NCBI GenBank assembly: GCA_965207065.1
Contig: OZ242260.1
Span: forward strand, 3,584,001-3,648,000
Direction: 5' to 3'
Origin: a bacterium
GTDB taxonomy: Bacteria > UBA8248
Length of the DNA stretch: 64,000 nt
Shown here: positions 2,672-27,068 of the stretch, in pieces
How positions within the stretch are numbered: position 1 is the stretch's first letter
Layout: each line of letters begins with the position of its first letter
Translations under genes and position numbers: made by a program
Notes under the pieces: generated by a model
The model's database searches: none
The model's input: only the letters and a program-made list of their open reading frames with translations
What the model was told of the DNA's origin: nothing

Positions 2672-2702
2672 CTGAAATATCCTCCCCTAAGCGGCGAGGA
2701 AA

Positions 2703-2779
2703 TGGTAGCGGCGGAGGGACTTGAACCCCCAACACTACGGATATGAGCCGTATGCTCTAACCGGTTGAGCTACGCCGCC
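2703..2779 (-). tRNA. tRNA-Met (CAT), elongator type
   Basis: Reverse complement GGCGGCGTAGCTCAACCGGTTAGAGCATACGGCTCATATCCGTAGTGTTGGGGGTTCAAGTCCCTCCGCCGCTACCA: 77-nt cloverleaf, CAT anticodon, encoded CCA. Confidence 0.95.
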
Positions 2780-2944
2780 AGAATGCACCCCGTCAGGGAG
2801 ACTGCTTGGGTCGGAAGATGGCGAAAATAAACATGGCCGAGAGAATATAGAAAAAAACCTGTATGCCAATGTCATCCATGCGAAAGCCTACCATCAAGCA
2901 TAAATACCCCAAAAAGAGCAATATCAGAATTTCGATTTCACGCC

Positions 2945-3136
2945 TCATTTGTCATTTGCTCCCTGTTCTAGGCCTTCGGACGAAGACGGCATTTCCTTCG
3001 ATTGCGTTTGCTGTAACCTCAAGTCCGGTGAAAATTCCGGACAAAAAATCGCCCCGTTCGGTTCATTGCGATACTTCAGGCGGCAACCCTCTCGCCAAGC
3101 GCAAACAGCGCACTCACGAACTCCCTGGTAGGCCAC
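2945..3136 (-). CDS. Small Cys-rich hypothetical protein (63 aa; CxxC-x5-C...C, possible metal-binding)
   Basis: GTG start after an AAGGAGA RBS; sequence MAYQGVRECAVCAWREGCRLKY...AIFCPEFSPDL. Confidence 0.7.
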   Translation of the reverse strand: MAYQGVRECAVCAWREGCRLKYRNEPNGAIFCPEFSPDLRLQQTQSKEMPSSSEGLEQGANDK

Positions 3137-3318
3137 GCTTGAATATCTCCTTCCAAAATTCCGCCTCACTATCAGGAGCAAAATATAAATGCCTGGAACC
3201 GAAAACGTCAAGTTTTCTATTTTTTTCGGCTTTCCCTTCCCATGAACCCCAGAGCCGAACAGCACTTCATAGAAAATCCAAAAACAGCTTCAAAACAAAA
3301 ACCTGAAAACCCTGTGAA

Positions 3319-5031
3319 TTACCTGACGGATTTCATTTCTTCGGAAACCAGATTTTCCAAAAAAGATACCGACTCGCTAATCGCTACAAGTTGTGTTTCT
3401 CCCGTCCTTCTCGATTTTATCTCGATTTTACCTTCCTTGAGCCCCCGGGGTCCGATGACCGCTTTGTAAGGGAACCCGATGAGATCGGCATCCTTGAATT
3501 TCACGCCCGGGCGCTCATCCCTGTCATCAAGCGCGACATCCAGCCCTGCGGCCTCGAGCGAGTCGTAGATGTGGTTACAAACCTTCATGGTTTCATCATC
3601 CACTCTCACCGGAATGATGTCCACATGATATGGAGCGATAGGAGTCGGCCAGATGATGCCGTCCTCATCATGGTTCTGCTCTATCGCCGCCGCGACTGTC
3701 CGGCCGACGCCAATGCCATAACAGCCCATGACGATAGTGTGCGTCTCACCATTCTCGTCCTGATAGGTAGCGTCCAGGGCATCAGAATACTTGCAACCCA
3801 GCTTGAAGACATGCCCCACTTCGATGCCGCGCCTGATGCTGAGCATCGCCTCGCAATTGGGACAGGCATCTCCTTCCTGTGCAACAGTGAGGTCTGCAAA
3901 TACGCCTGCGGTGAAGTCACGACCCTCCCGAGCGCCTGTGTAGTGATAGTTCGTTTGATTCGCCCCGATAATAAGCCCTTCGCTATTTTCAATGGCGTAA
4001 TCCGCCACAAGCCGAACATCCGACAAACCCACAGGGCCTGCAAAGCCCACCTCAGAGTTTGTAAGCTTCTCTACCGTCTCGGCGTCGGCAAGCTCGATAT
4101 CCACCGCATCAAGCGCATTTTTCAGTTTGATCTCATTTAATTCCCTGTGGCCTGGAATCATAGCGGCCACCGGCTCACCATCAGCGACATATAAAAGAGT
4201 TTTTAACATGCGATATGGAGGCAACGAAAAGAATTCCGAAACTTCTTCTATCGAATGAGCGCCAGGGGTATGAACTTTTTCAAGTTCGCCACCCTCATTC
4301 TCGGGCAACTTCAAAGATACCGGCGATTTTTCCACATTCGCTGCGTACCCACACGAATCACATACGGAGATTGCCTCCTCGCCAGTATCAGCCATTACCA
4401 TGAACTCGTGCGAAAAACTCCCACCGATGGCCCCTGAATCCGCCTCCACAGCACTGAACTTCAGACCACAACGTTGAAATATTCGGGTATAGGCTTGCAC
4501 CATTTCTTCATAACTATTTTCCGCGCCCGCCTCGTCTCTATCAAAGCTGTAGCCGTCCTTCATCGTAAACTCCCGTCCACGCATCACACCGAAACGGGGC
4601 CTGATCTCGTCTCTGAATTTCGTTTGAATCTGGTAGAGATTGAGCGGCAAGTCCCGATAGCTCCTGACCTCGCGCGCCACCAGATCGGTGATTACCTCCT
4701 CATGCGTGGGACCCAGACAAAAATCACGCCCATGGCGATCTTTCAAGCGGATCAATTCTTTGCCATATACTTCCCATCGTCCAGTTTTTTGCCAAAGCTC
4801 GGCGGGATTCAGCGTAGGCATAAAAACTTCTTGCGCACCTGCGCGATTCAACTCTTCACGCAGTATCTGTTCGACTTTGCGCTGCACGCGTACGCCGAGG
4901 GGCAAGAGCGTATATACGCCAGCCGCCAATCGGCGGATCATGCCTGAGCGCACCATAAGAGTATGGCTGACGACTTCCGCTTCGGCGGGCGCTTCTTTTA
5001 ATGTGGGCAAAAACCCTCGTGAGAATCTCAT
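3319..5031 (-). CDS. proS: Proline--tRNA ligase (with editing insertion domain)
   Basis: LGPTHEE, QTKFRDEIRPRFGVMRGREFTMKD, IEVGHVFKLG, MGCYGIG. Confidence 0.98.
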   Translation of the reverse strand: MRFSRGFLPTLKEAPAEAEVVSHTLMVRSGMIRRLAAGVYTLLPLGVRVQRKVEQILREELNRAGAQEVFMPTLNPAELWQKTGRWEVYGKELIRLKDRHGRDFCLGPTHEEVITDLVAREVRSYRDLPLNLYQIQTKFRDEIRPRFGVMRGREFTMKDGYSFDRDEAGAENSYEEMVQAYTRIFQRCGLKFSAVEADSGAIGGSFSHEFMVMADTGEEAISVCDSCGYAANVEKSPVSLKLPENEGGELEKVHTPGAHSIEEVSEFFSLPPYRMLKTLLYVADGEPVAAMIPGHRELNEIKLKNALDAVDIELADAETVEKLTNSEVGFAGPVGLSDVRLVADYAIENSEGLIIGANQTNYHYTGAREGRDFTAGVFADLTVAQEGDACPNCEAMLSIRRGIEVGHVFKLGCKYSDALDATYQDENGETHTIVMGCYGIGVGRTVAAAIEQNHDEDGIIWPTPIAPYHVDIIPVRVDDETMKVCNHIYDSLEAAGLDVALDDRDERPGVKFKDADLIGFPYKAVIGPRGLKEGKIEIKSRRTGETQLVAISESVSFLENLVSEEMKSVR

Positions 5032-5044
5032 CAATCAGATTTTC

Positions 5045-6295
5045 TTAGGAGTGAGTTACTTCAAATTGACCTTTTTCGTATTGCTCCGCAAGTTGCTCTA
5101 CGCGCTCAACCAAGTTTTTCTTGATGTCCTCATAGGATACCAGGCCTGACTTTTCGCCTTTCATGAAAATCAGAGCGCGCTTATGGCCGCCGGCCACACC
5201 GATGTCGGCATCTCTCGCCTCACCAGGACCGTTCACTTCACAACCCATGACGGCCACCGTGATGGGGGCATCGATATGGGCAAGTTCCTGCTCTACTTCC
5301 ATGGTGAGCTTATCCACGTCAATTTGAACACGTCCGCACGATGGACACGCGACAACATTCACGCCCTTTTGGCGTAATTTCAGGCTCTTCAGGATTTCGT
5401 AGCCCACACGCACTTCCTCCACCGGGTCCGCCGCCAAAGAAACGCGAATGGTGTCGCCAATGCCTTCCGAGAGCAGAATTCCCAGCCCGACAGCGCTTTT
5501 TATGCTGCCCGTCTGAAGGCTTCCACTTTCCGTGATTCCCAGGTGAAGAGGGTACTCGACGCGTTTCGACATCAATCGATAGGCCTTCACCGCCCTCGCG
5601 ACATCGGAAGCCTTTAGAGAGATTTTCGTATCATAAAAGTTGCGCTTCTCCAGCATGGCGACATGACGCAAGCCACTCTCAACCATCGCCTCAGGCGTTG
5701 CGCCGCCAAAGCGATCAAGCAGATGCTTTTCCAAAGAGCCGGCGTTCACGCCAACACGAATGGGCAAGCCGTGATCCTTCGCGGCAGCGACTACTTCGCT
5801 CACCCTTTCCTCCCCATTGATGTTGCCCGGGTTAATTCGCAAACAATCGATACCCGCATCCGCCGCCATCAGGGCATAGCGATGGTCGAAATGGATATCC
5901 GCAACCAAAGGCATCTCGGTTCGTTTTCTGATTTCATAGAGCGCGTTCGCCGACTTCTCGTCAGGAACGGCCAACCGCACAATCTCGCACCCGGCAGCTT
6001 CCAGCCGTTTGATTTGGTCTACGGTTGCTTCCACATCATGCGTGAAAGTGTTGCACATCGATTGCACTACGATGGGAGCACCACCGCCAATCTTGACGCC
6101 TCGTACTTCGAGTTGAGAACTTTTTCGCCGATTCAGCGGGAACAAAGACGGATCCGCGCAAGGCAACTCCTCGCCAGTTTCATCCGCACCAACCATCGGC
6201 AGGACAGTGTTGTTCTGCTCTTTGGGAGGCAAACCGATTCCTGCTATGGGTTTCGTGTAAAACACGTCGTCTGTAAATGGCTCAAACATTGCCAA
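5045..6295 (-). CDS. ispG: (E)-4-hydroxy-3-methylbut-2-enyl-diphosphate synthase
   Basis: VQSMCNT, ADIHF, RINPGN, RVGVNAGSL, CPSCGR, MGCEVNGPGE. Confidence 0.97.
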   Translation of the reverse strand: MAMFEPFTDDVFYTKPIAGIGLPPKEQNNTVLPMVGADETGEELPCADPSLFPLNRRKSSQLEVRGVKIGGGAPIVVQSMCNTFTHDVEATVDQIKRLEAAGCEIVRLAVPDEKSANALYEIRKRTEMPLVADIHFDHRYALMAADAGIDCLRINPGNINGEERVSEVVAAAKDHGLPIRVGVNAGSLEKHLLDRFGGATPEAMVESGLRHVAMLEKRNFYDTKISLKASDVARAVKAYRLMSKRVEYPLHLGITESGSLQTGSIKSAVGLGILLSEGIGDTIRVSLAADPVEEVRVGYEILKSLKLRQKGVNVVACPSCGRVQIDVDKLTMEVEQELAHIDAPITVAVMGCEVNGPGEARDADIGVAGGHKRALIFMKGEKSGLVSYEDIKKNLVERVEQLAEQYEKGQFEVTHS

Positions 6296-6299
6296 ATCC

Positions 6300-7496
6300 C
6301 TATTTGCCTTTGGTGCTCTGAGAAGATGGTTTTGTTACGTCCTTCATTTTCCCTACTTGCTTCTCTTTTTTCGTTATCGCTGCCGGTACACTACCAAAAA
6401 GATAGTACACGCTGTCCTTATAGGTGGCAAAGATCATTAAACCGATGAGCAGAACAGTACCCACTTGCATGGCCATCTCCCGGACCCTGAGACTAATAGG
6501 TCTGCCACGCAAGCTTTCAATAAGCAAGAAAAAAATATGGCCACCATCGAGAACCGGAATCGGCAGCAAGTTCAAAATCGCCAGATTGACGCTGAGCAAA
6601 ATCGTAAACATGACAAGATAGCGAAATCCGCGCTGCGCCTGCTCTGCGGCCACCACAGAAATACGAATCGGCCCGCCAATGTCCGCAGGAATGGTCTTCG
6701 TCAGCATCGAATACAACGTAATGACCGTTAAGCTGGCGATGCGATAGTTTTGCTCAAAACCCTTTCCCAAAGACTCAAAGAAGCCGAAACGCTCGGTATA
6801 GGTGCCTTGACCGATACTGATGCCGATTCGGCCGTAACCTAAATCTTTGCCCGTCGAACTCATCGATGTCGGAACAATGGGCGTTTCAAAGGATTTGCGA
6901 CCGCGTTCCACCGTCAACACGAGTTTTTGATCGGCATTTTTTCGAACTATTTCGACAAGCTCGGACCATCTTTGAATTCTCGTCCCATCAATGGCCACGA
7001 TGTGATCGCCGGTTTCAAGGTTCGCTTTTTGCGCAGGCGTATCGGGCAAAACACCGCCTACCCACGTGCCAGGCACTGGAATACCACCAAGGTGCAATCC
7101 CCAACTGAGGAGTATCGCCAGGATGACATTAAACAAGGGTCCCGCTGAAATGACAGCCAATCGGTGACTCACAGGACGTAAATAGAAAGATTTCTCCGGC
7201 TCATCCGGCACTTTGGGCGCATCTGGATTGTCAGCTTGCGCTTCCGGGTCTTCTCCTACAAGCTTTACATAGCCACCCAAAGGGATTAGGGAAACGCGAT
7301 ATTCCGTCTCTCCCCGCTGGAAACCCCAGATACGACGACCGAAGCCCAAGGAAAATGTGGAAACGCCGATTTTGAGCCATTTCGCGACGAGATGATGGCC
7401 CAATTCATGGATAAAAATGAGTAACCCCAGAACCAGCACAGCCCAGAAAATCGTCTGCCCAAACCCCATCACCCAGTTTATGATTTGCATCGCCAT
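6300..7496 (-). CDS. rseP: RIP metalloprotease RseP (M50 + PDZ)
   Basis: HELGH, AGPLFN, NLLPIPVLDGGH and a PDZ-like middle region. Confidence 0.95.
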   Translation of the reverse strand: MAMQIINWVMGFGQTIFWAVLVLGLLIFIHELGHHLVAKWLKIGVSTFSLGFGRRIWGFQRGETEYRVSLIPLGGYVKLVGEDPEAQADNPDAPKVPDEPEKSFYLRPVSHRLAVISAGPLFNVILAILLSWGLHLGGIPVPGTWVGGVLPDTPAQKANLETGDHIVAIDGTRIQRWSELVEIVRKNADQKLVLTVERGRKSFETPIVPTSMSSTGKDLGYGRIGISIGQGTYTERFGFFESLGKGFEQNYRIASLTVITLYSMLTKTIPADIGGPIRISVVAAEQAQRGFRYLVMFTILLSVNLAILNLLPIPVLDGGHIFFLLIESLRGRPISLRVREMAMQVGTVLLIGLMIFATYKDSVYYLFGSVPAAITKKEKQVGKMKDVTKPSSQSTKGK

Positions 7497-7510
7497 TCTC
7501 GAATGATTCC

Positions 7511-8245
7511 TTATTTTTTACTGGCCGCACCGGCCGGCATTTGTAGAACTTCGACATTTGGCGGCACGATAAACTGAAATTCCTCTTTTGCGATTTTGAC
7601 GTTTTCTTTGACATTTGAAAACCGCAGGTGACTTTTGTTGCCTATGTTATCAATATAAGCCAAAGCAAGGATTCTGAAATTCTCAGGTTCCACCTCGAGC
7701 CACATCCGGCGAAACGCAGCACCCGCAGACTTCGGCTCCAAGCGAATACGATGGGGTTGACCGGCTTTCCAGATTCCTCCGCTTCGTCTGGCAACTCCAA
7801 TCTCTTCCACTGTGACATGAAAATTCTTCTTCAAATTCCCCTTGCCGGACAAAAATAACAATGGGGTGGCGCCTAATCCACTCCCCCCGTTATCGGAGAC
7901 CATAACCTGCCTGAAACGCGCAGTATAGAGCCAAAACGTACGACCATCGGAAACCATAACCTGCTTTTCAGGCTTGACATACTCCATGCGCAGTTTGCCG
8001 GGTTTCATCCACAAGAGGCTTCCGCTCGACGTCGTCGTTCGCCCAAGAGATTTCAATTCATTTTTCTGCTCGAAAGAGGCTTGCAGAGAATCGAGCACGT
8101 CATATTTTTTCTGCAGCTCACTGATTATTTTCTCCGCCTTCAGACGCGATTCTTCCGCTAGAGACGTACCAAGAGCGTATCCTTGCATGAGCGCGATAAA
8201 CAAAAAAACAACTGCCAGTCTTAAGAAGAAATCTGATTTGCGCAA
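7511..8245 (-). CDS. lolA: Outer-membrane lipoprotein carrier LolA family protein
   Basis: Signal-peptide-like N-terminus, ASFEQ, KPGKLRMEY..PEKQVMVSDG.TFWLY and C-terminal FQFIVPPNVEV. TTG start at 8245 chosen from a GAGG RBS. Confidence 0.85.
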   Translation of the reverse strand: MRKSDFFLRLAVVFLFIALMQGYALGTSLAEESRLKAEKIISELQKKYDVLDSLQASFEQKNELKSLGRTTTSSGSLLWMKPGKLRMEYVKPEKQVMVSDGRTFWLYTARFRQVMVSDNGGSGLGATPLLFLSGKGNLKKNFHVTVEEIGVARRSGGIWKAGQPHRIRLEPKSAGAAFRRMWLEVEPENFRILALAYIDNIGNKSHLRFSNVKENVKIAKEEFQFIVPPNVEVLQMPAGAASKK

Positions 8246-8270
8246 AACTTTTGTAATCCTCTTTGAATGA

Positions 8271-8924
8271 TTACTCCGAAACAGGCGAGATGAAACCGCT
8301 ACCCTCCTGATGAGCGTTCCCTGAATACTGCACAACACCATCGACGCAGTGAACACTCCCCTCGGCGATGAGCCTTACCGCCAATGGGTATATTCTGTGT
8401 TCATAACCGAGAATTCTCTCCGAAAGGGTTACTTCATCATCATGAGGTAACACCGGTACGGCGGCTTGTAAAATGATCGGCCCCGTATCCACTCCTTCGT
8501 CCACAAAGTGGACCGTGCAGCCAGTCACTGTCACACCAGCATCTAAAGCTTTTTTTTGCGCATGCAGACCAGGGAAACTCGGTAGAAGCGAGGGATGAAT
8601 GTTGATGATTTTCCCTGGAAAGCGACTTACAAACTCCGGCGGTAAAATCCGCATAAAACCAGCACAACAGATTAGATCGATTTCGCAATTTTCGATCTCA
8701 TCTCCCATCTTCAGGTAAAACCCTTCCTCTTTGGGTGCGAGATGTCTATGTCGTAATCCAGCTATAGAGGCGCGCTCAAGGGCGTACGAATTCCTTTTGT
8801 CACTCAGTACCAATACGACTTCCGCCGGAAAATCCGATTTCTGCCCGGCATCAATGAGGGCTTGCAGGTTCGACCCACGCCCAGAGGCCAAAACACCCAC
8901 TCGTAATCGTGTCCTTGCATGCAC
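8271..8924 (-). CDS. purN: Phosphoribosylglycinamide formyltransferase
   Basis: LASGRGSNLQAL, INIHPSLLPSFPG, GCTVHFVDEGVDTGPII. Confidence 0.97.
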   Translation of the reverse strand: MHARTRLRVGVLASGRGSNLQALIDAGQKSDFPAEVVLVLSDKRNSYALERASIAGLRHRHLAPKEEGFYLKMGDEIENCEIDLICCAGFMRILPPEFVSRFPGKIINIHPSLLPSFPGLHAQKKALDAGVTVTGCTVHFVDEGVDTGPIILQAAVPVLPHDDEVTLSERILGYEHRIYPLAVRLIAEGSVHCVDGVVQYSGNAHQEGSGFISPVSE

Positions 8925-8927
8925 TAT

Positions 8928-9980
8928 TTATATGCCTTCAATGACGACGGAATGACCACCTTTGGGTTTTCTGACAACTTCGCCAACAACCGTGGGGCGT
9001 TCTCCTGCAGTTTTCAAACATTCGAGCACAGATTCAACTCGCTCCGACCTCACGAGAAAGACAAAACCCAAGCCCATGTTAAAAATGTGATACATCTCCG
9101 CGCTGTCAACCGGGCCAAACTCTTGAATCAATGAGAATATCTCAGGCATCACCCATTTTTCAGGATAAAATTTAGCCTGCAATTCATCCGGCATCACACG
9201 ATTTACATTTCCCGGAATTCCACCTCCCGTGATGTGCGCGATGCCACTAATCCCCTCATCTCTCCGAATGGAAAGAACCCCTTTCGTGTAAATTCTGGTC
9301 GGCTCCAATAATACATCTTCAATGGGAACGCCTAGCCTTTGCCCCGCCACATCCCGTGTTTCTTTTGATTCAAATATTTTACGTACCAAGGAATATCCGT
9401 TGCTATGAATTCCTGAAGAAGAAAGTGCGAGTATGGCATCGCCGGTCTTGACAGGTGTCCGATTGTCCAGGGTTTTGCGTTCAACCACCCCCACAGCGAA
9501 TCCAGCAACATCATACACGCCCGGCTCATACATGTTAGGCATCTCGGCGGTTTCGCCACCGAGGAGGGCGCATCCTGCCTCCCGGCATCCCAGTGCAATC
9601 CCGGATACGACTGCCTTCAAAACATGTTGATTGATCTTGCCTGTCGCAATGTAATCAAGAAAAAAAAGCGGTTCTGCTCCCATAGTCAGTATGTCGTTGA
9701 CGCACATGGCCACCAAGTCGACCCCGATGGAATCATGGCGCCCGAACTCTTGGGCCAAGAGTAATTTCGTGCCGACGCCGTCGGCGCCTGAAACAAGTAC
9801 AGGATCTTCATATTCCCCGCCCAGACGGAACAAACCCGCAAAATCCCCCGTCCCCTTCAGGATACGGTCACTTTGACCAACATGGGTGGATTTTACGATT
9901 TGGGCGATAGCCTGAACGAAACCCTCTCCCAACTCCACATCGACGCCCGCATCGCGGTATGTCAGACGGTCCTCATTCAA
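8928..9980 (-). CDS. purM: Phosphoribosylformylglycinamidine cyclo-ligase (AIR synthetase)
   Basis: TYRDAGVD, DGVGTKL, GGETAEMP, SSGIHSNGYSLVR, HITGGG. Confidence 0.97.
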   Translation of the reverse strand: MNEDRLTYRDAGVDVELGEGFVQAIAQIVKSTHVGQSDRILKGTGDFAGLFRLGGEYEDPVLVSGADGVGTKLLLAQEFGRHDSIGVDLVAMCVNDILTMGAEPLFFLDYIATGKINQHVLKAVVSGIALGCREAGCALLGGETAEMPNMYEPGVYDVAGFAVGVVERKTLDNRTPVKTGDAILALSSSGIHSNGYSLVRKIFESKETRDVAGQRLGVPIEDVLLEPTRIYTKGVLSIRRDEGISGIAHITGGGIPGNVNRVMPDELQAKFYPEKWVMPEIFSLIQEFGPVDSAEMYHIFNMGLGFVFLVRSERVESVLECLKTAGERPTVVGEVVRKPKGGHSVVIEGI

Positions 9981-10031
9981 TAGTGATGTTCCCTGATTTA
10001 ACAGGCGGAATCGAACGGAATGTACTCAAAA

Positions 10032-12167
10032 TCAGCCATGGACTTCCATCAATTTCTTGACTAAAGCTACATTATGTCGGTGTCCACTTCTCTCAGCGGT
10101 CACTTTTCCGCGGATGGGACGACCGGTTAAATACAGATCTCCTATTACATCAAGAATTTTATGGCGAACAAATTCATTGGAGAATCGCAATTGGGTATTC
10201 ACGACTCGCGATTTGTCTACAAGAATCACATTATCCCAACGACCACCTTCGGCCAATCCCATTTTCTCAAGCGACTCGAGTTCAGAGACAAAGCCAAATG
10301 TACGGGCCGGTGCGATTTCTTCTTGAAAACTCAATGCGTTCTTATGTTCATAAAGATATGATTGTTTCCCAATCGGCTTAGGATAATCGATGAGGTATGT
10401 TACAGAAAAAGAATCCGAAGGCTCTATGCGAATGTAACCCTTCTCGTCATTCGGTTCACCTACCTCATATACCTGGTCAACCCACAATTCCTCGCGTTTT
10501 TCTTTCTGATCTTCAATGCCAGCTTCTTCAAGCAAGCGACAAAACTCCACCGCAGATCCATCCATTACTGGTACTTCTTCACTCATTTTGACGAGTATAT
10601 TGCTAATTTTGTATGCGTGCAGCGCACTCATGAGATGCTCTATCGTTCGAGCCGTCACTGCTCCATTGCGCAAGTTTGTCGCATGGTTGGTGCCATCCAC
10701 GAAATCGACATTTGCCTTCACGATATCGGGGCTTGTCAGGTTGCCAAACTGAATTCCGCTCCCCGGCGGCAAAGGTTCGATGATTAATCCTGTCTTCAAC
10801 CCTGAATGAAGCCCCCGGCCGTACAACACGACACTTTTTGAAATACTCCTTTGATTTGTTTCCCTTAGGTTCGTCGACGCCGACGTTACGGGCTCTATAT
10901 TGTATGCTTTAATTTTTCGTTTTAAAGCCGGTTTCGTCATCCCCACCGCCTGGGCGGTTTTGAGGATATCCCAACCGTGCTCCTCCAAATGGAAGGAAAG
11001 GTATTGTCTCTCCCACTGGGTTCTGGCCAAATTAAAATTAGAAGGGGCGTCGTCTTTTGATGATGTGTGCGTCGCTAAATCAGAAGCTTCGCGTATCGCG
11101 TACGGCAAGTGGCTGATGTCAATCTCCGAGCCTTGCGATGAATATGCCGCTTTGGTCACCGCGCCTTTTAATTCAGCAATATTGCCCGGCCAGTCATAGT
11201 CTTCCAGAAGCGCAATGACATCCTCTGAAAATTCCTTTTCATACCTGTCAGCTTCCATGCATTCACTCAAAAATCTGTTGGCCAGCGGCAAAATATCCTC
11301 TTTGCGCTCGCGCAAAGGTGGCAGGTGTATTACATCAGCGCCTATTTTTGAGGACAAGGCTCTTACATAGGCCTTGTCATTCAGGGCACCCATATGATCA
11401 ACGGATACCATTAAACGCATTGATCCTTTCGTATGCCCGAGGAATCTCACAAGAAATATCTCCTGCTCCGCCATGGGCAGTTGCTCCAAACCATCAAGGT
11501 ATGCCGTCCCTTGGAAGGCATCAGGCAACAGCCGTTCCAAGACATTTTCCCATTCGCTTATTTCCGTCACAGGAAACAGCGAACGGCAATGAATCGGCCT
11601 AAATCCTTCTTCTTTCCGAATACCGTTCTTGTGAATCATCCTGGCAACAAAACGCTTCCCAGTACCTCTTTCACCTGCGATTAGCAAAGGGCTTAAATCT
11701 TTCGCGGCTTTACGTATGGCCCGTCGAACCTTTTGAATATTATTGCTATTTCCGTCAAGCATTACATCAACGACATCACTTGCCTTCAGTTCTTTGGCTC
11801 TTCGCGCTTGAACGGCGGAATCGACAATACGCAAAACCGCATCAATAGAAAGGGGTTTTTCAATGAAATTAAAAGCGCCTAACTTTGTCGCAGCTACGGC
11901 GGTTTCAATATTGCCATGGCCCGACATCACGACGACTTCGATATCCGCGTTCGATTCTTTCACTGCTTGCAAAGTCTTGATGCCGTCAATTCCGGGCATC
12001 CATACATCAACCAAAACCACATCCGGTGTTTCGGTTCGAACTAATTGAAGGGCTGTTTCGCCAGATTCGGCCCGCTCAACACGATATCCTTCATCGTGCA
12101 ATACATCTTCCAAGCTCGCGAGAATTTCGCGCTCATCATCGACGATAAGCACATGTCCCTTATCCAA
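10032..12167 (-). CDS. lpxC: Fusion protein: NtrX-like response regulator (REC + degenerate sigma54-type AAA+ + Fis-like HTH) and UDP-3-O-acyl-GlcNAc deacetylase LpxC
   Basis: N-terminal VLIVDDE, DVWMPGIDG, MSGHGNIETAV, FIEKP; GERGTGK; WPGNIAEL. C-terminal domain from ~10853: QRSISKSVVLYGRGLHSG, TIEHLMSAL, EVPVMDGSA, IAPARTFGF, RHKILDVIGD, SGH. One continuous ORF. Confidence 0.92.
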   Translation of the reverse strand: MDKGHVLIVDDEREILASLEDVLHDEGYRVERAESGETALQLVRTETPDVVLVDVWMPGIDGIKTLQAVKESNADIEVVVMSGHGNIETAVAATKLGAFNFIEKPLSIDAVLRIVDSAVQARRAKELKASDVVDVMLDGNSNNIQKVRRAIRKAAKDLSPLLIAGERGTGKRFVARMIHKNGIRKEEGFRPIHCRSLFPVTEISEWENVLERLLPDAFQGTAYLDGLEQLPMAEQEIFLVRFLGHTKGSMRLMVSVDHMGALNDKAYVRALSSKIGADVIHLPPLRERKEDILPLANRFLSECMEADRYEKEFSEDVIALLEDYDWPGNIAELKGAVTKAAYSSQGSEIDISHLPYAIREASDLATHTSSKDDAPSNFNLARTQWERQYLSFHLEEHGWDILKTAQAVGMTKPALKRKIKAYNIEPVTSASTNLRETNQRSISKSVVLYGRGLHSGLKTGLIIEPLPPGSGIQFGNLTSPDIVKANVDFVDGTNHATNLRNGAVTARTIEHLMSALHAYKISNILVKMSEEVPVMDGSAVEFCRLLEEAGIEDQKEKREELWVDQVYEVGEPNDEKGYIRIEPSDSFSVTYLIDYPKPIGKQSYLYEHKNALSFQEEIAPARTFGFVSELESLEKMGLAEGGRWDNVILVDKSRVVNTQLRFSNEFVRHKILDVIGDLYLTGRPIRGKVTAERSGHRHNVALVKKLMEVHG

Positions 12168-14424
12168 TGAAAGCCGTCCTTTGTTTTTCAGGTGTGATGT
12201 CCACAGTAGGCGCCAGAGGCAACGTTACACGGAAAACAGAGCCAACAGGATGGTTATCTCGCACGCCTATTGTTCCATTGTGATCTGCCACAATGCGGTG
12301 ACATATAGCCAAACCTAACCCGGAACCTCTATCTTTTGTCGAAAAGTAAGGCGAGAATATATGTCCTTTCATATCTTCCGATATACCCTGCCCCTGGTCG
12401 GCAACTTCAACAACTATCATATTTCTATCCATATTACTCCATGCTTGCAAATCTATCTCGCCATCAACTTCATGGGATTCGAATGCGTTTTCCAATAAAT
12501 TGATGAACACACGTTGCAACTGCTCGGGATCCGCCATGACAACTGCATTCCCGGTATCAATCTGCATCGAAAATTTCACGTTCCCTTTTCTGTCACGATA
12601 TAAATTTGCAACATCCTCAATCAGTGGAACAAACTCGCAAAGCCTTAATCTCGGCTCCGGCATTCGCGCAAACCGGCTGAATTCATTCACCATTTCAATC
12701 AGACTCGTTACCTGATTAATAATGGTATCGGTACAAGATTCGAATACTTCCGCAAAATCATAGGCTTCAATTTCAAATTTCCTTCTCATTCTCTGAGCGG
12801 AGAGCTGTATTGGCGTAAGTGGATTTTTGATCTCGTGCGCGATGCCACGAGCCACTTCCTGCCATGCGGCGACTTTTTGAGCCCGAATCAAGGCCGTCAT
12901 ATCATCAAACACAATGACGGCACCAAGCCTGCCACCATCCGCGCTTTTGAGAAGGGTCAAGCTCGCGCGCAACGTCAATACACGGCCATCAATCATGACT
13001 TCCACCTGCTCCGATGCGCTTTGGTGGTCTCGGTTTCTCATAGAACGCATCAACTGACGAACAGGCTCGAGATGTGCGCTTTCAAAAATTTCGCTGAACA
13101 ATCGTCCCACGGCGTTCTGGGGTTCTATGCTCAGCAACTCCCCTGCCGCTTTGTTTAGAATAGTAACGCGCCCTCGGCGGTTGATTGATATCACACCCGC
13201 TCCAATATTTTCGAGCATCGCTTCCATATATCTGCGCCTTCTGTCGATTTCCATATTGGACCGACGCAGGATTTCAGAAGATTCTTCAATTTTCTCTTTG
13301 TTAGCCAGCAATTCTTCCGTCATGCTGTTAAACGCGTTGACCAAAATTCCCACTTCGCCATCTGCTTGCGCATCCACGCGATGTTCCAGATCGCCATCCG
13401 ATACGGCCCTGGTGGCGTCTGCTAACTTTTCGATGGGAACCGTGATCCCGCGAGCGAGGTAGAAGCCAAACCATATGGCGGCAAAGAGAATGAGCAAGGT
13501 GACAACCAAGAAAGTGATGATGTAATTAGCTTTGATGGGATTCTTGGACAGTTCCAATTCTTTATAATTCACAAAGGAATCCGATATGCCTCTGATCTTC
13601 TCCACGAGCCTATCAGACACATATTTAGATACAACGATAAACCCCACCACTTTATTTTGAATCCTCAAAGGCGCCACGCCGTAAATAACATCACCTTTTT
13701 CCCAATTCTCAATACTCGATCGTGACTCCCCATCAATTACCTGATCCACGTATCCCACCAGTGGCGAGAACATTGCGCCTCGTCCTAAGCCAGGACGCTT
13801 GACCGATACAATCTCCTTCCGCTCTCTATCGTAGAGTTGGATAAAATCTACCCCCAGGCTCTTTCTCTCGGACTCCAATATTTTTCCGACAGCCTTAGGG
13901 TTTTCCAATGAATCGGGATGCGCTTTCTCCAACATAAGAGCTAGTCGACTGGCACTGAATAGCGCGTTTCGCTCCACTTCGCGATAATAGGTTTGAGCCA
14001 CTTCAAACGACCCTTTCAATGCTCTTTCCACATTCATGTTGAACAAGGCGTTGAAACTTTGGTTAATCAAACCACTAGCCACCACAAAAAGAGCTACTAC
14101 CGGAATGAGCGTAAAACCGACAAAAGCCAACACGAGCTTCAATTGTAAGCGCGAACGACCAGCGCCCGTTCTACCTTCGTAGTAAAGACGCACCAAGTTC
14201 TTCGCCACCAATAGAATAACCACCATGAGCAGAATGATACTCAGGTTCACTAGTGCAAAAACGACGACGTTGTTCAGTAATGGAACTCCCGGCTCAAGTT
14301 CCTTGAAATAAATCCAAGCCGTGAATGAAAGAGTCGCTATGATGATCAAAGCGATGAATGACCGCAGAAGTGTTCTCCGTCGTCGCAAAGAGGTTTCCTG
14401 ATTTTTCAATTGAGCTGGATGCAC
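12160..14424 (-). CDS. ntrY: NtrY-like membrane sensor histidine kinase (TM-HAMP-PAS-HisKA-HATPase)
   Basis: AWQEVARGIAHEIKNPLTPIQLSAQR (NtrY-type H-box), HAMP and PAS segments, NLLENA, DQGQG, GSGLGLAI; overlaps the start of the regulator by 8 bp. Confidence 0.9.
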   Translation of the reverse strand: MHPAQLKNQETSLRRRRTLLRSFIALIIIATLSFTAWIYFKELEPGVPLLNNVVVFALVNLSIILLMVVILLVAKNLVRLYYEGRTGAGRSRLQLKLVLAFVGFTLIPVVALFVVASGLINQSFNALFNMNVERALKGSFEVAQTYYREVERNALFSASRLALMLEKAHPDSLENPKAVGKILESERKSLGVDFIQLYDRERKEIVSVKRPGLGRGAMFSPLVGYVDQVIDGESRSSIENWEKGDVIYGVAPLRIQNKVVGFIVVSKYVSDRLVEKIRGISDSFVNYKELELSKNPIKANYIITFLVVTLLILFAAIWFGFYLARGITVPIEKLADATRAVSDGDLEHRVDAQADGEVGILVNAFNSMTEELLANKEKIEESSEILRRSNMEIDRRRRYMEAMLENIGAGVISINRRGRVTILNKAAGELLSIEPQNAVGRLFSEIFESAHLEPVRQLMRSMRNRDHQSASEQVEVMIDGRVLTLRASLTLLKSADGGRLGAVIVFDDMTALIRAQKVAAWQEVARGIAHEIKNPLTPIQLSAQRMRRKFEIEAYDFAEVFESCTDTIINQVTSLIEMVNEFSRFARMPEPRLRLCEFVPLIEDVANLYRDRKGNVKFSMQIDTGNAVVMADPEQLQRVFINLLENAFESHEVDGEIDLQAWSNMDRNMIVVEVADQGQGISEDMKGHIFSPYFSTKDRGSGLGLAICHRIVADHNGTIGVRDNHPVGSVFRVTLPLAPTVDITPEKQRTAFIG

Positions 14425-14427
14425 AAT

Positions 14428-15033
14428 TCACATTCCTTCAGAGCTAAATGTCTGGGAATAGCTCCAATCAGACTGCTTCCCCCAAAAAGCGAGTAAGTAA
14501 TTAAAGGGAAAAACAAAATCCACATGATTCAGCCGCGCTCTGATTTTTACATAATATCGACTATTTGGGGACAAGGTCTTCCCAGTGACAATGGGCGCGC
14601 CATTCAATTCACGCATCCAGTCCGTCATCTCACCTTGGCTTTTCGTCACTTTTCTCTCGATCTCTTTTTCACCTTCTTTGAGATGAAAAGTGTAAGTTTT
14701 TTTCAAGGCGCTATATTTCACTTGATGATGTAATTGCCGCGAGGTGACTTCCAAATCATAAATCAGCTTGCGAGAGCGAAGGAGACTTACATCAAAGATG
14801 AACTTCGTCGTCACACCACTATGAATAGCTTCCAACAGTTTTGGCGTAAATGCGCCCAATAGAGAACCAAAAACAAGCAACTGTCCATTCTTGTTAATTA
14901 CAATAATATCATTTACCCGGATCCCATCTTGGTTGTCTGTTGCGGCGAGCGCCGGCGCCACCAGAGCAAAAATTATACAGACCGCCAGGACAAGTTTCCT
15001 AAGAACAAATGTTTTCCGGGTGTTAGATAACAT
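14428..15033 (-). CDS. Exported protein, DUF4390-like
   Basis: Signal peptide; LLEAIHSGVTTKFIF, QVKYSALKKTY and YYVKIRARL resemble DUF4390; sits in the usual position upstream of ntrY. Confidence 0.7.
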   Translation of the reverse strand: MLSNTRKTFVLRKLVLAVCIIFALVAPALAATDNQDGIRVNDIIVINKNGQLLVFGSLLGAFTPKLLEAIHSGVTTKFIFDVSLLRSRKLIYDLEVTSRQLHHQVKYSALKKTYTFHLKEGEKEIERKVTKSQGEMTDWMRELNGAPIVTGKTLSPNSRYYVKIRARLNHVDFVFPFNYLLAFWGKQSDWSYSQTFSSEGM

Positions 15034-17846: not shown

Positions 17847-18245
17847 CTAATCCAACTTCGAATCTCGGGGGGATAAGCTCATCTGAGGTTTGGAATCCGT
17901 TTGCGACGCGAGTTTATTACTTGAGGTGGCGGATTCCTCGGTTTGTGGATTTTCCATGGCAAGTAGCTTGCCGCTTTTCTCCCGCACTTCATCCAGATTA
18001 ATCTCCATCGTCTTTACTTCGCGCTTCAATTTTCCTATCTGGTTCCTGAACTTCAATCTGTCCAATGCCCCTCCAAGCCATGCAACCATGAAACCGCATG
18101 CAAACACGGCCAAAAGCACATAAAAAAGAGGCAAGTTGAAGCTGCCCTGATAATAGGCAACGGTCACCGGTTTCATGTTGATGACACCGAAGCTCGATAT
18201 CGCCAAAGCCAGAATCAAACCGATGATGAGTCGAAGACTACCCAT
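17847..18245 (-). CDS. LapA (DUF1049) family small membrane protein
   Basis: Two TM segments around a N..PV.V motif, LPLFYVLL, then a coiled-coil tail. Confidence 0.7.
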   Translation of the reverse strand: MGSLRLIIGLILALAISSFGVINMKPVTVAYYQGSFNLPLFYVLLAVFACGFMVAWLGGALDRLKFRNQIGKLKREVKTMEINLDEVREKSGKLLAMENPQTEESATSSNKLASQTDSKPQMSLSPRDSKLD

Positions 18246-18446: not shown

Positions 18447-18908
18447 TTATCGAGACAGCCATCCCCCGTTTAGCAGAAAGGCTATCCTTTTTTCTTCCTC
18501 ATTCATGCGTGCAGATTCAGGCTCAGTGTAATGATCATACCCCTTGAGGTGCAAAAGGCCATGCACGAGCAGACGTTCTGCCAGGATTCCGAAATCAACC
18601 GCCTCGGGCTCCGCCTGGCGAAACACCTCGTCCACGCAGATCACTATTTCTCCTAAAAATGCCTCTCCCTCTTTTGGTTCACCCACAACCGGAAAGAAGT
18701 CAGCTGGAGGAAATGCCAACACATCTGTTGTTTCGTCCTCCTTCCGATATCGAGAATTTAACGCACGCATCTCCTCGTCACGAATGAATACGACGCTGAA
18801 CCAATCATTTTCGGACCGAAGGGCTTTCCGTATGACGTCCAAACGTTTCCTCAGCGTTATGTGATCCAGCGCGAACAGCTTTTGCTCGTTTTTGATGAGG
18901 ACTTCCAT
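18447..18908 (-). CDS. ybeY: rRNA maturation endoribonuclease YbeY
   Basis: MEVLIKNEQ start, LNSRYR.EDETTDVLAFP, LGEIVI, HGLLHLKGYDH. Confidence 0.93.
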   Translation of the reverse strand: MEVLIKNEQKLFALDHITLRKRLDVIRKALRSENDWFSVVFIRDEEMRALNSRYRKEDETTDVLAFPPADFFPVVGEPKEGEAFLGEIVICVDEVFRQAEPEAVDFGILAERLLVHGLLHLKGYDHYTEPESARMNEEEKRIAFLLNGGWLSR

Positions 18909-21291
18909 TTGCGGCCCCTTTCCTAGGAGCATCTTCTTGTCCTGGATAGTGAATCCGGTGATGATGAATGCCAACCAAAACGCGCATGAAAGCGTCTTGA
19001 ATTTTGCTTAAATCCCTGAGCGTGAGACTGCAATTATCCAATTGTCCCTCGACAAAGGCACTTTGGACGATTCTATCCACCAATGCGCTGAGGCGCCCGA
19101 GAGAATGATCCGATAGCGAATGTGATGATGCCTCCACCATATCAGCCAACATCAGGATGCCCGCTTCCCTTGTCTGCGGTCTGGGTCCCGGATAGCGAAA
19201 AAACTCTTCTGTCACGCCATCCCCGTTTAGCTTCTTCGCTTTTTCATAAAAATACTGAATTAAGGATGTGCCATGATGTTGCTGAATTAAATCGATAATC
19301 TCTTTGGGTAGTTGGTGGCTTCTGGCAAGTTCCACGCCCTCTTTCACATGGCTGATCAGGATGAGCGCGCTCATGTTGGGCTTGAGTCTATCGTGGCGGT
19401 TTTCCCGCCCCTGGTTTTCTATGAAATACTCCGGCTTCATCATCTTTCCGATATCATGAAAATATGCACCCACACGGGTGAGAAGCGGATTCGCGCCTAT
19501 CGCCTCGGAAGCCTCCTCCGCCAAATTGCCCACGAGAAGGCTGTGGTGATAAGTACCTGGCGCACTAACGACCATCTTTCTCAACAACGGGTGATTTTGG
19601 TCGGCCAATTCCAGGAGGCGCATATCGGTCGTAAGTTTGAAAATCGACTCCAGCAGGGGCATGGCCCCTGCCACGATAATGACGTTTGAAAGGCCGCCGA
19701 GCATGGCGATGGGAACATCCGTCCATTGCATAATCGCGGCACTGAAACCTTCCTGCACATTAAAACCCAGGGCCAGCGCAGCACCTAGCAAACCCAGGAT
19801 GAACGCCACCACAAGCACGGAAGTCCTGCGACGATATTCTTTCCATCGAATGGCCGCCAGCACACCGCCGCCCAAGGCTACGAGGCTGAAGTTGATGTGG
19901 TTCGGCAAAATTAGACCGGTCAGAACGGCGGAGAATACTGCCATCAGAACTGCTGATGAGCGTCCCTGTAAAACGGCAGCAAGAAGAGAAGCGGAGCAAA
20001 ATGGAATAATATAGTAAAATGAATGGAGTGGAATCCCACGGAAAGTTTCATGCAGCACTTCAGAGAAGAGAATACCCATTTTCACCAAAACAGCCTGGCT
20101 CAAAAGCAGTATTACAAATAGTGTTACGTTTTTTTGTGATGCCAAAAAACTCATGTCGTATTTCTGCACACAAATCCATGCCAGGACCAGCAAAATAAAA
20201 ATCACCAAAGCTGTTCCGGTGAAGTTACCAAGCACATGGCTTTGTCGATAGATTTTCTCCAGGCTCTTAAGTTTTATTATTTGTCCTTCGCTTAACCGTT
20301 CTCCCTCGCGGGCAATCATTTCCCCTTGCTTGAGCACCTCTGAAACAGGGGGAACGGAGGCCGCAGCCTTCTCTCTGCTCTCAAGTGTCGCCCTGTTGTT
20401 GAAAGTCAGCGTCGGTTGAACCATCTTCAAGATTTGGGAGACCAGCAGACCCCGAACACGCTGAGGAATTCTGTTGGATTCCTTTCGAGCTTCTTGCTTG
20501 AGCAGTTTATCGACCTGTCGAAGCTCCAGAGGATTCATAGATGGGCTAACAGATACGCGATTCCCCGTTCTGATATCGCGTGCTGTAATGCCCTTCGCGG
20601 CATGGGTGGCGTATAATCTTTTATCGCTCACAATTTGGCTCGAATATGCCACCTTCAACAGCTTGGCGATATCCTCCTGGATCCAGTTTGCGAATCTCTC
20701 ATCTCTCAACCAACCCGATAATTTCTTTGGAACTGCGCCACCCACCAGCTTATGAAATGCGCTCTCCGCCTTAAGGAAGACAGGCGTAGCGTACAATTCC
20801 TGATAAGCTTCCGACTCGGATAAAAGTGACGGGTTCTTCTGTTTGGCGCGTATGCTCAAATGCTCGGCTTTCACCTTCTCGATCTCTTTGTCTACCGTCC
20901 GTTGTATGGATTCAAAAGCGCCTTTCAGTTTGGTGAGGATAACTTGCGAAAGTTTGGTATCGATATCGTAACGCGGCAAGACTTTGTCTCTGGATGCTTG
21001 GCGTTTCGCATTCGTGGCGATCGGATCGACAACGCGCATATCTTGTGGGGCTTTAATATCCCTGGGAACGACATCTCCTGCCTCGAAAGACACACGAGGC
21101 GCCGATAAATCGGTTGTGAGCAGAAACGAGAGTACAACGGCAAGTGTTCCGCCCAGAATCCACGGATAAGCCCTTGTGTTGGCAAACGCCAGGGCATAAC
21201 CCGCGAGCGGTCGTCCCACCGACACCAATAGACGTAAAAAAATGTTTTTGGGCTTCCCGGCAGATTTTCCGACGCCGGCTCGATGGATCAC
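18805..21291 (-). CDS. 7TM-HD family membrane phosphohydrolase (PgpH/YqfF-like)
   Basis: Large extracytoplasmic domain, 7 TM segments, APGTYHHS, YFHDIGK, FIENQ, HHGT, LADMVEA; lies between phoH and ybeY. Confidence 0.9.
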   Translation of the reverse strand: MIHRAGVGKSAGKPKNIFLRLLVSVGRPLAGYALAFANTRAYPWILGGTLAVVLSFLLTTDLSAPRVSFEAGDVVPRDIKAPQDMRVVDPIATNAKRQASRDKVLPRYDIDTKLSQVILTKLKGAFESIQRTVDKEIEKVKAEHLSIRAKQKNPSLLSESEAYQELYATPVFLKAESAFHKLVGGAVPKKLSGWLRDERFANWIQEDIAKLLKVAYSSQIVSDKRLYATHAAKGITARDIRTGNRVSVSPSMNPLELRQVDKLLKQEARKESNRIPQRVRGLLVSQILKMVQPTLTFNNRATLESREKAAASVPPVSEVLKQGEMIAREGERLSEGQIIKLKSLEKIYRQSHVLGNFTGTALVIFILLVLAWICVQKYDMSFLASQKNVTLFVILLLSQAVLVKMGILFSEVLHETFRGIPLHSFYYIIPFCSASLLAAVLQGRSSAVLMAVFSAVLTGLILPNHINFSLVALGGGVLAAIRWKEYRRRTSVLVVAFILGLLGAALALGFNVQEGFSAAIMQWTDVPIAMLGGLSNVIIVAGAMPLLESIFKLTTDMRLLELADQNHPLLRKMVVSAPGTYHHSLLVGNLAEEASEAIGANPLLTRVGAYFHDIGKMMKPEYFIENQGRENRHDRLKPNMSALILISHVKEGVELARSHQLPKEIIDLIQQHHGTSLIQYFYEKAKKLNGDGVTEEFFRYPGPRPQTREAGILMLADMVEASSHSLSDHSLGRLSALVDRIVQSAFVEGQLDNCSLTLRDLSKIQDAFMRVLVGIHHHRIHYPGQEDAPRKGAANGSPHQKRAKAVRAGSHNAEETFGRHTESPSVRK

Positions 21292-25110: not shown

Positions 25111-25137
25111 AAATTTCCTGACACCAGGGCGGTGAGC

Positions 25138-25165
25138 TTGACAACCCTTTGTTCCGTGGTATTTT
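25138..25165 (+). promoter_or_regulatory. Putative sigma70 promoter for rpsT
   Basis: TTGACA-N16-TATTTT with an extended -10 TG. Confidence 0.55.
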
Positions 25166-25228
25166 ACCGAGGCTGTGAAACAGCCTCAAGAGAAACATTT
25201 CGACTATTTTCACGGAGAATGAAACAAA

Positions 25229-25486
25229 TTGCCACATATTCGTTCGGCTAAGAAGCGCAATCGACAGAATATCGTTCGCCGCACCAGAAACCGCGCAATT
25301 CGGACGCAGTTTCGCAATACCATTAGGCAGGTCTTGGTGGATAGCGAAGAAAACCCCGAAGAACTGTTGAAAAAAGCCCAGTCGCAACTGGACCGCGCAG
25401 CCACCAAAGGAATTATCCACAAGAAAACAGCGTCGAGACGCGCGGGAAGATTGGCCAAACGAGTTCATGCGGCATCTTCGAAATAG
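25229..25486 (+). CDS. rpsT: 30S ribosomal protein S20
   Basis: MPHIRSAKKRNRQ...LDRAATKGIIHKKTASRR. Confidence 0.96.
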   Translation: MPHIRSAKKRNRQNIVRRTRNRAIRTQFRNTIRQVLVDSEENPEELLKKAQSQLDRAATKGIIHKKTASRRAGRLAKRVHAASSK

Positions 25487-26530: not shown

Positions 26531-26531
26531 G

Positions 26532-27068
26532 CTAAAAGCCCTCTAATACGAGGCTCACGACGTCTTTCGACAAAGAATCGGCCACTTGTTGATTGGCGTT
26601 CGAGCGGTTCGTGTCGCTTTGCGCTATAGATGATGAAACCGCGAATTCGGCATAGGACTCCAAGTCCTGATTGATAAGCAATTTCTTTCGCCCCTTGTCG
26701 CGCAGCCGTATTCGCGTACGCACAACGACACGGTATTCTTGAACCCTGTCGGCCCGAGTGAAGCCAATCGGAGAGAGGCGATAGTCGCGCAATACACCTT
26801 CGAGAGCGATGTCGGCATCGGGAGTGTCGGAAATCCGGAGGCGGCCGTCCCGCAAGAATCTACCTCTCATCGCTTTCGTAACGGCGCGTCCAAGGCCCGG
26901 CTCGTTCGTATGGTTCAGGAATGGTGATATCGAAATTGTCTGAACAGCTTTGAGGTTTTTGCGGCGTAAAGTTCCCTCAAGGTCGTAGCCACAACCCGCA
27001 ATCAGAAAAACGCACAGCAGGAGAGAGAAGCCGAACTTGTAATTCGTCCTCAATCGTATCCCTCTCAA
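26532..27068 (-). CDS. lptE: LPS assembly lipoprotein LptE family
   Basis: Lipobox LIAGCGY, PFLNHTNEPGL, QEYRV; upstream of holA. Confidence 0.8.
   Translation of the reverse strand: MRGIRLRTNYKFGFSLLLCVFLIAGCGYDLEGTLRRKNLKAVQTISISPFLNHTNEPGLGRAVTKAMRGRFLRDGRLRISDTPDADIALEGVLRDYRLSPIGFTRADRVQEYRVVVRTRIRLRDKGRKKLLINQDLESYAEFAVSSSIAQSDTNRSNANQQVADSLSKDVVSLVLEGF

Follow-up and report, generated by a model that had tools for sequence, protein, structure and literature searches.

How does a response regulator come to share one polypeptide with a lipid A enzyme, and does the regulator control the enzyme? The question is raised by a gene in a 64,000-nucleotide stretch of bacterial DNA, hereafter the window (GTDB lineage Bacteria; UBA8248; assembly GCA_965207065.1, contig OZ242260.1, positions 3,584,001 to 3,648,000 of the forward strand). 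Here LpxC, the enzyme committing the cell to lipid A synthesis for the outer membrane, forms the C-terminal part of an NtrX-like regulator. As the only LpxC of the genome is fused to a phosphorylation-sensing regulator that stands beside a membrane sensor kinase, the locus points to a possible direct signalling switch on outer-membrane synthesis.

The gene occupies positions 10032-12167 of the minus strand, the strand of all the operon genes described here, as a single uninterrupted open reading frame (ORF) of 711 residues with a TTG start. The receiver (REC, residues 6-114, 11826-12152) matches Response_reg (PF00072) with 104.1 bits, the cut-off being 30.2. A degenerate AAA+ core follows (residues 139-285, 11313-11753; Sigma54_activ_2, 50.3 bits, cut-off 25), of which Sigma54_activat (PF00158) recognizes residues 139-197 only, at model positions 3-61 of 168 (43.7 bits, cut-off 20.2). 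Its lid (residues 286-367, 11067-11312; AAA_lid_14, 73.7 bits, cut-off 27) keeps the motif PPLRERKEDI, and the Fis-type helix-turn-helix (HTH, residues 384-422, 10902-11018) scores 20.1 bits with HTH_8, slightly below the cut-off of 22. After a linker of ~16 residues, the LpxC domain (residues 439-707, 10047-10853) covers positions 1-267 of the 268 in PF03331 with 281.5 bits (cut-off 27) and passes the NCBIfam lpxC equivalog TIGR00325 (238.2 bits, cut-off 187.25). The original prediction, made from the letters of the DNA, had described this same order of domains in one frame; the ORF list and the Pfam and NCBIfam scans agree with it, on the minus strand, and each motif that it quoted is found in the translation (DD at 10-11, D54 in LVDVWMPG, K104-P105, YLDGLE, WPGNIAEL, TIEH, HKILDVIGD and SGH).

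The best NCBIfam match of the N-terminal part is NtrX (NF051870), yet its 261.3 bits lie below the equivalog cut-off of 600. Among solved structures, residues 5-422 come closest to Brucella NtrX, 5m7n (E 4e-48), with whose HTH that of the fusion aligns, and several solved LpxC structures align with residues 438-707 (E about 1e-46). The layout is that of NtrX: a REC domain, an AAA+ domain devoid of GAFTGA and a Fis HTH, in a gene placed after an NtrY-type kinase. The Brucella alignment is consistent with the earlier remark that NtrX proteins often lack GAFTGA. In an AlphaFold2 monomer of the full-length protein each domain is folded confidently (mean pLDDT, the predicted local distance difference test, 82.9), and the AAA+ core has the canonical five strands; the receiver is predicted to continue into a long alpha-5 helix (108-130), and the HTH shows three confident helices (378-421). 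By descent the fusion belongs to the NtrC/NtrX family; in its manner of working it would resemble response regulators whose output is enzymatic, and at its C-terminus it qualifies fully as an LpxC.

The fusion is a real and anciently conserved gene. LpxC is present in every one of the best 120 matches in a collection of 5.8 billion proteins, with identities from 99% down to ~40%; 109 of these are full-length fusions of at least 690 residues, 4 are short REC-LpxC proteins and 7 are cut at the N- or C-terminus. Their source names include Nitrospinae/Nitrospinota (85-87% identical), Candidatus Tectomicrobia, Candidatus Schekmanbacteria and Thermodesulfobacteriota. Close relatives thus carry the fusion rather than separate genes. 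A contig assembled independently in another study (run X3) spans 9900-14500 without gaps and differs by 26 substitutions, and a second one (X7) covers 10662-14500, again without gaps; neither reports an indel or a joint at the fusion junction, and the stop or indel that could have undone the original prediction does not appear in them. Contigs from two metatranscriptome runs overlap parts of the stretch, the uncovered parts being uninformative. An RNA-library contig of 490 nucleotides spans 10715-11193 and bridges the HTH/LpxC boundary at ~10859, which, DNA carry-over being possible, is consistent with transcription as one unit.

At both ends of the protein the functional residues are intact, judging from the alignments. 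The window protein has D10, D11, the phospho-acceptor D54, S82 (serine or threonine in the family) and K104 in its receiver. Among the best 120 homologues D54 is found in 116 and K104 in 117, the remainder being column gaps in N-terminally cut proteins. The LpxC motifs TIEH, ARTFGF, HKILDVIGD and SGH align with solved LpxC chains, and the signatures x-E-H and x-G-H occur in 120 and 118 of the 120 homologues, respectively. They contain the zinc and catalytic residues of the enzyme, which we take to be E78, H79, T191, H238, K239, D242, D246 and H265 in E. coli numbering. That these residues are kept, as first noticed in the window alone, thus holds throughout the family.

The middle of the protein has decayed. 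Its Walker A motif is kept (GERGTGKR); Walker B reads YLDGLE and has no glutamate, sensor II reads WPGNIAEL with alanine in place of arginine, and there is no GAFTGA. This erosion, part of the original prediction, is confirmed both by the translation and by comparison of fused with unfused proteins, the latter being 74 NtrX-like ORFs out of 73 loci. The Walker A lysine persists in 108 of 109 long fused forms. In contrast, the Walker B Asp-Glu pair is found in 5 of 109 long fused forms (0/46 in the clade of the window, 5/63 in distant forms) and in 73/74 unfused ORFs; the sensor II arginine in 0/109 and 73/74; and a GAFTGA-like loop in 0/109 and 30/74. In the window clade, the L1 loop segment has lost ~11 residues and a second insert ~10.

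Hence the fusion lacks what defines a bacterial enhancer-binding protein (bEBP): a full sigma54-interaction domain with its GAFTGA loop, the Walker B Asp-Glu pair and the sensor II arginine. We conclude from these motifs that its AAA+ module is a pseudo-ATPase, in which the Walker A lysine remains and the Walker B glutamate, the sensor II arginine and the sigma54-contact loop are lost. The decay is specific to the fusion, since the genome retains rpoN and two bEBPs that each match the model along its full length with 242 bits, where the fusion reaches 40 bits and matches positions 3-61.

Conservation within the window clade follows the same division. Mean pairwise identity is 0.86 for REC and 0.83 for LpxC; it is 0.60 for the AAA core, 0.68 for the lid, 0.69 for the HTH and 0.44-0.57 for the linkers, so that the middle of the fusion is relaxed yet under some constraint. 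In the LpxC domain itself, 16 positions are conserved in at least 90% of 58 fused domains and shared by at most one of 11 unfused ones; they include the charge reversals K527 and E547. These fusion-specific positions are candidate contact sites, as seen against a small outgroup.

Is the fused enzyme the one that the cell uses? The genome of the window, a single 4.48-Mb contig estimated to be 96% complete, has exactly one LpxC match, the fusion; a second, stand-alone lpxC was looked for there and none was found. LpxB and LpxK are both present, so the lipid A pathway exists in this genome. A sole LpxC match beside LpxB and LpxK suggests, indirectly, that the fused LpxC may be the acting deacetylase of the cell.

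Across the phylum, 50 of 51 genomes have an LpxC match; the profile search of the remaining one (G003, 93% complete) gave none. Around the 45 complete matches the reading frames measure 646-755 residues, the size of the long fusion, in 35 genomes, 432-538, the size of the short form, in 9, and 356 in 1, so that a frame of fused size holds the match in 44 of these 45. The 356-residue frame belongs to an assembly that is 67% complete (G011). In the other five genomes the match lies in pieces at contig ends or in two frames; one of the broken matches, over two frames of one contig, is in an 8-Mb assembly (G028). Outside the phylum, each of five fusion-bearing genomes has one LpxC match, the fused copy, and each of five genomes with an unfused NtrX-like gene has one stand-alone lpxC, in frames of 288-364 residues.

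The family also contains a much shorter architecture, in which the receiver is joined to LpxC through a linker of 30-58 residues. We count 48 such proteins of 420-480 residues in a set of 174. All 48 keep D10, D11, D54, S82 and K104, as well as the EH, HK..D..D and GH residues of LpxC. One short form (P0053) arose by deletion, because a remnant of the HTH is still present in it.

A quick IQ-TREE phylogeny of the LpxC domain was built from 69 rows, 58 fused and 11 unfused. It leaves out one of two loci from the same genome (L006, equal to the L008 genome), a near-copy (P0053, of L007), three N-terminally truncated proteins, the split L018 and the contig-cut L041. All fused LpxC domains fall to the same side of a branch that has a support of 100 in the Shimodaira-Hasegawa-like approximate likelihood ratio test (SH-aLRT). 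The short forms require 6 changes on this tree, at least 4 of them forced by well-supported branches. A single clade of the 10 short forms is rejected, at a cost of 234.9 log-likelihood units (approximately unbiased test, p-AU 4.75e-07); the group was defined by architecture, and this clade test was run after the tree had been seen. On the tree, AAA+ and HTH were deleted at least four separate times, each time leaving REC-LpxC. A receiver with an intact phospho-site and with LpxC as its sole attachment is hard to explain unless the receiver acts on LpxC.

The likely source of the signal is encoded next to the fusion. Directly upstream lies a gene for an NtrY-like sensor histidine kinase of 754 residues (12160-14424, minus strand) with NtrY_N, HAMP, PAS, HisKA and HATPase_c domains, the NtrY_N match being marginal (23.5 bits, cut-off 23.2). 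Its stop overlaps the start of the fusion by 8 nucleotides, which suggests that the two are translated together. Further upstream, at 14428-15033 (minus strand), is a gene for a DUF4390 protein of the PlrP family, 201 residues long with a hydrophobic N-terminus (PF14334, 97.5 bits). Downstream of the fusion come purM (8928-9980; Pfam AIRS/AIRS_C) and then purN (8271-8924; Formyl_trans_N), both on the minus strand.

An NtrY-like gene stands immediately upstream of the fusion, both in the window and in 11 of 11 phylum loci with upstream DNA (L006-L016, that is 10 genomes, L006 and L008 being the same one), among which are five short-form genomes. DUF4390 was detected ahead of the kinase in 6 of 10 phylum loci; two more lie on contigs that stop short of this position. 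On the downstream side, the order fusion, purM, purN recurs in the window and in 15 of 15 phylum loci (L002-L016).

A strict sigma54 motif has no match upstream of the operon of the window. A sigma70-like site (10926-10899, minus strand) lies just ahead of the LpxC domain, in a region with 7 such sites against a mean of 11.1 after shuffling. The sequence AAGGAG falls within Q-R-S codons at the start of the LpxC domain, 16 nucleotides from the next in-frame GTG, and the family alignment has no conserved methionine or start codon at the domain boundary. The sigma70-like site and the AAGGAG both fall within 10840-10926 (minus strand). An internally initiated free LpxC is not supported by these features.

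Where does such a protein come from? Queries with distant fused forms gave 80 species-representative loci: 3 long fusions (Thermodesulfobacteriota, Desulfomonile), 1 split fusion (L018), 3 short forms (a genome labelled "Deltaproteobacteria", a Syntrophobacter sp., and one cut by a contig end) and 73 unfused regulators. In 67 of the 73 unfused loci an NtrY-like gene is directly upstream. In seven of the 73, DUF4390-ntrY-ntrX is immediately preceded, on the same strand, by a stand-alone lpxC (L028, L030, L032, L034, L040, L052 and L056, at about 1800-7400 in each); their labels are Acidoferrum, Rokubacteria, Desulfobacterales, Methylomirabilota, Deltaproteobacteria and Smithellaceae. The regulators of 4 of these 7 loci have a canonical GAFTGA. 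Two of them, L028 and L056, both with GAFTGA regulators, show a strict sigma54 -24/-12 motif immediately before lpxC, where ~0.02 hits are estimated by chance. Nitrospira loci have the order ntrY-ntrX-purM-purN, which is that of the window minus LpxC. Upstream of the Desulfomonile fusion (L022, 274-6396), the DUF4390-NtrY pair gives way to three ORFs with REC domains, one of them for a hybrid NtrY-like kinase that has REC on either side.

Published work connects this family of regulators with lpxC. According to Rajeev et al. 2011 (PMC3333781), lpxC is the single target of the D. vulgaris NtrC-family regulator DVU2934 in DAP-chip (DNA-affinity-purified chip), and in S. fumaroxidans lpxC is directly upstream of the operon orthologous to that of DVU2934. 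Our seven lpxC-adjacent loci match this synteny of S. fumaroxidans. PMC7240162 reports that deletion of ntrYX in R. sphaeroides raises lpxC mRNA 8.8-fold (also summarised in PMC12444477); upstream of lpxC its authors detected no binding site for NtrX, and they took the control to be indirect. A 2026 paper (PMC13001219) proposes, from genetic evidence, that the DUF4390 protein PlrP acts in the periplasm as a third component and holds back the phosphatase activity of PlrS, a kinase of the NtrY family.

It is thus well supported, by motif counts and by the tree, that a former transcription regulator with an eroded AAA+ domain is now tied to LpxC. The ancestor may have been a sigma54-type activator dedicated to lpxC. 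Joined to the protein that its target gene encodes, it would have given up its ATPase function, and in several lineages AAA+ and HTH would have gone altogether. In the long form, the dead AAA+ domain and the HTH were probably kept as an oligomerisation scaffold, possibly as an autoregulatory DNA-binding part.

NtrC1/DctD-type receivers work through their alpha4-beta5-alpha5 face and alpha-5 helix. We propose that the periplasmic DUF4390 (PlrP-like) protein probably sets the activity of the kinase, and that the NtrY-like kinase would phosphorylate Asp54. The phosphorylated receiver would then alter the conformation or the oligomeric state of the fusion, so that LpxC output would be altered post-translationally. 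The signal would most likely travel as in the NtrC1/DctD type, by way of the alpha4-beta5-alpha5 face and the long alpha-5 helix. That phosphorylation controls LpxC in some way, through its activity or its turnover, we regard as quite probable from the architecture of the family. For direct gating after translation, through catalysis, conformation or assembly, we lean towards yes, with some reserve. The control may be activating or inhibiting, and we prefer an effect on catalysis over one on turnover. The complete scheme remains more tentative and falls a little short of an even chance: the DUF4390 protein, the NtrY-type kinase and the receiver would form an envelope sensor that switches the sole LpxC by phosphorylation, in a family that would record the capture of a sigma54 activator by the product of its target. 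As to the original idea of a former regulator turned into a switch on LpxC, the eroded regulator tied to LpxC is upheld by the counts and by the repeated loss of AAA+ and HTH; the gating by phosphorylation we still infer.

Several points weigh against this reading. Architecture and evolution are the whole basis of the proposed phospho-coupling. The full-length AlphaFold2 model has a pTM (predicted template modelling score) of 0.45 and contains no confident arrangement of the domains; the short form reaches a pTM of 0.73, with linker residues 134-169 predicted to be disordered and no interface defined. A complex prediction of the LpxC domain with the REC domain of the short form gave a score of 0.02, the mark being 0.32, and carries no weight either way. 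The HTH of long forms is still fairly conserved at the identity given above, which leaves room for a role in DNA binding, and since the N-terminal part misses the NtrX equivalog cut-off, transfer of function from NtrX is weak. The LpxC tree, the result of a quick search, has no more than 11 unfused rows as its outgroup and does not prove that the fusion arose once. Finally, the LapB equivalog search over the whole genome, whose best hit of 27 bits against a cut-off of 363 reflects matches at the level of tetratricopeptide repeats, used a model of the enterobacterial type that may miss a distant functional analogue.

The strongest competitor also invokes phosphorylation, which would set the amount of LpxC: the state of the receiver would expose or hide a degradation signal or recruit a protease, as a counterpart of FtsH/LapB in E. 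coli. In the organisms studied so far, according to PMC12444477, LpxC is under proteolytic control. Because no LapB orthologue was found in the genome and the fused LpxC, which runs to Pfam model position 267 of 268 and then four residues further, lacks the C-terminal tail of the proteobacterial type, the E. coli-type route is probably absent, and turnover would need another one. A search with the LapB zinc-ribbon, PF18073, found no match in the genome either, a result of little weight, as the control matches in 10 of 14 genomes including Gram-positives. The architecture fits turnover as well as it fits allostery. However, no degron or adaptor has been identified, and receivers with enzyme outputs usually act on activity; we hold this account to be unlikely.

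A second possibility is that the protein is bifunctional and uncoupled, with an N-terminal regulator that binds DNA (for example at its own operon) and an LpxC attached for co-expression or stoichiometry. An HTH that aligns with that of Brucella NtrX and has an identity of 0.69 would suit such a regulator, as would the DNA binding of related unfused regulators (PMC3333781) and the existence of an LpxC-FabZ enzyme fusion with no known role in signalling. The short forms speak against it: at least four lineages deleted HTH and AAA+ yet kept an intact receiver on LpxC, with the kinase adjoining at the loci examined. All 48 keep every phospho-site residue, and a receiver with LpxC as its only output would not be maintained without coupling. 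The loss of the AAA+ catalytic residues points the same way. We consider this explanation distinctly unlikely, somewhat more so than regulated turnover.

The LpxC domain could also be a ligand sensor that reports substrate or product to the DNA-binding part, the long form then being mainly a transcription factor. Enzyme-derived sensor domains on regulators are known, and the long forms do keep their HTH. Against this stand the status of the domain as the only LpxC in a genome with LpxB and LpxK, its catalytic and zinc residues (kept in 120/120 and 118/120) and the short forms, which have no DNA-binding part; such a role is very improbable. That a sequencing or assembly frameshift joined neighbouring ntrX and lpxC genes, as the two frames of relative L018 might suggest, is a negligible prospect in view of the 109 full-length fusions among the best 120 homologues, the fused-size frames in 44 of 45 complete phylum matches, the gapless X3 and X7 contigs and the RNA-library contig that bridges the junction. 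L018 itself, from a Thermodesulfobacteriota metagenome-assembled genome (3173-5670), has a REC and AAA frame of 399 residues and then a 410-residue ORF with LpxC, and may be a frameshift error, a real split or a pseudogene.

With direct gating as the preferred reading, the fusion can be set beside known systems. It resembles NtrY/NtrX (PlrS/PlrR) with PlrP in its gene order, DUF4390, NtrY-like kinase and regulator, and in a regulator made of REC, AAA+ without GAFTGA and a Fis HTH. In contrast, the regulator here ends in a complete LpxC and is missing both the Walker B glutamate and the sensor II arginine. For alphaproteobacteria, PMC7240162 and PMC12444477 tie NtrYX to the envelope and to the expression of lpxC. 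Known NtrYX systems act on lpxC via transcription only, whereas the fusion joins regulator to enzyme. DVU2934 is likewise a two-component regulator of the same broad family tied to lpxC; it is a separate DNA-binding protein that exerts transcriptional control, while here a single polypeptide contains both regulator and enzyme, and the machinery of an activator has decayed.

Response regulators with enzymatic outputs are exemplified by CheB, PleD/WspR and RpfG. The short REC-linker-LpxC form is built like the CheB type, with a receiver, a flexible linker and an enzyme domain, and a putative cognate kinase nearby. Its output, however, is a metabolic enzyme of lipid A synthesis and not a signalling enzyme, and the long form has a dead AAA+ domain and an HTH in between. 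FtsH/LapB/YejM control in E. coli and Salmonella acts where the fusion would, on how much active LpxC there is for the committed step (PMC12444477). It proceeds by proteolysis through a C-terminal degron; here there is no C-terminal tail, no LapB orthologue was found in the genome, and a receiver is covalently attached instead. LpxC-FabZ (NCBIfam NF009667) is another natural LpxC fusion, with a C-terminal fatty-acid dehydratase, unlike the N-terminal signalling part seen here: the window protein matches this model at 216.6 bits (cut-off 465) over the LpxC part only, and has no FabZ family match.

Other features of the window are recorded here in their own right. Envelope genes are found around the operon, at 6300-8356 and 23446-27068 on the minus strand: an RseP-like M50 protease with a PDZ domain, LolA, MurJ and LptE. 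rpoN lies ~7 kb ahead of the window start. A LapA-domain protein (17847-18245, minus strand, 51.7 bits) adjoins mutS and has no LapB-like gene beside it. At 18805-21291 (minus strand) a large seven-transmembrane receptor with an intracellular HD hydrolase (7TMR-HDED, 7TM-7TMR_HD, HD) is followed by PhoH. Five ORFs of 115-192 residues (2863-3306 on the plus strand, 25094-25468 on the minus strand, and within 27065-28573) have no Pfam match at E 1e-5.

We found no description of a REC-LpxC or NtrX-LpxC protein in the literature, judged largely from titles and abstract openings. In a 2025 review on how lipid A is regulated, the terms "fused", "fusion" and "receiver" do not occur, and the link of NtrYX to lpxC, as covered in the available portion of PMC12444477, is transcriptional only.

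How the flux into lipid A is set outside Enterobacteria is largely open. A receiver on the sole LpxC makes this question testable with purified protein, by its deacetylase activity, assembly and stability. LpxC being an antibiotic target, its natural regulatory surfaces are of general interest; the bacteria concerned here live in the environment. If the proposed switch is true, a metabolic enzyme of an essential pathway would join the short list of response-regulator outputs, and the widespread DUF4390/NtrY-type sensors would have a defined physiological output. As an evolutionary series the family is unusually clear, running from lpxC beside the operon, through a fusion with a decaying ATPase, to the repeated loss of AAA+ and HTH; it may trace the path of a transcription factor to a post-translational switch.

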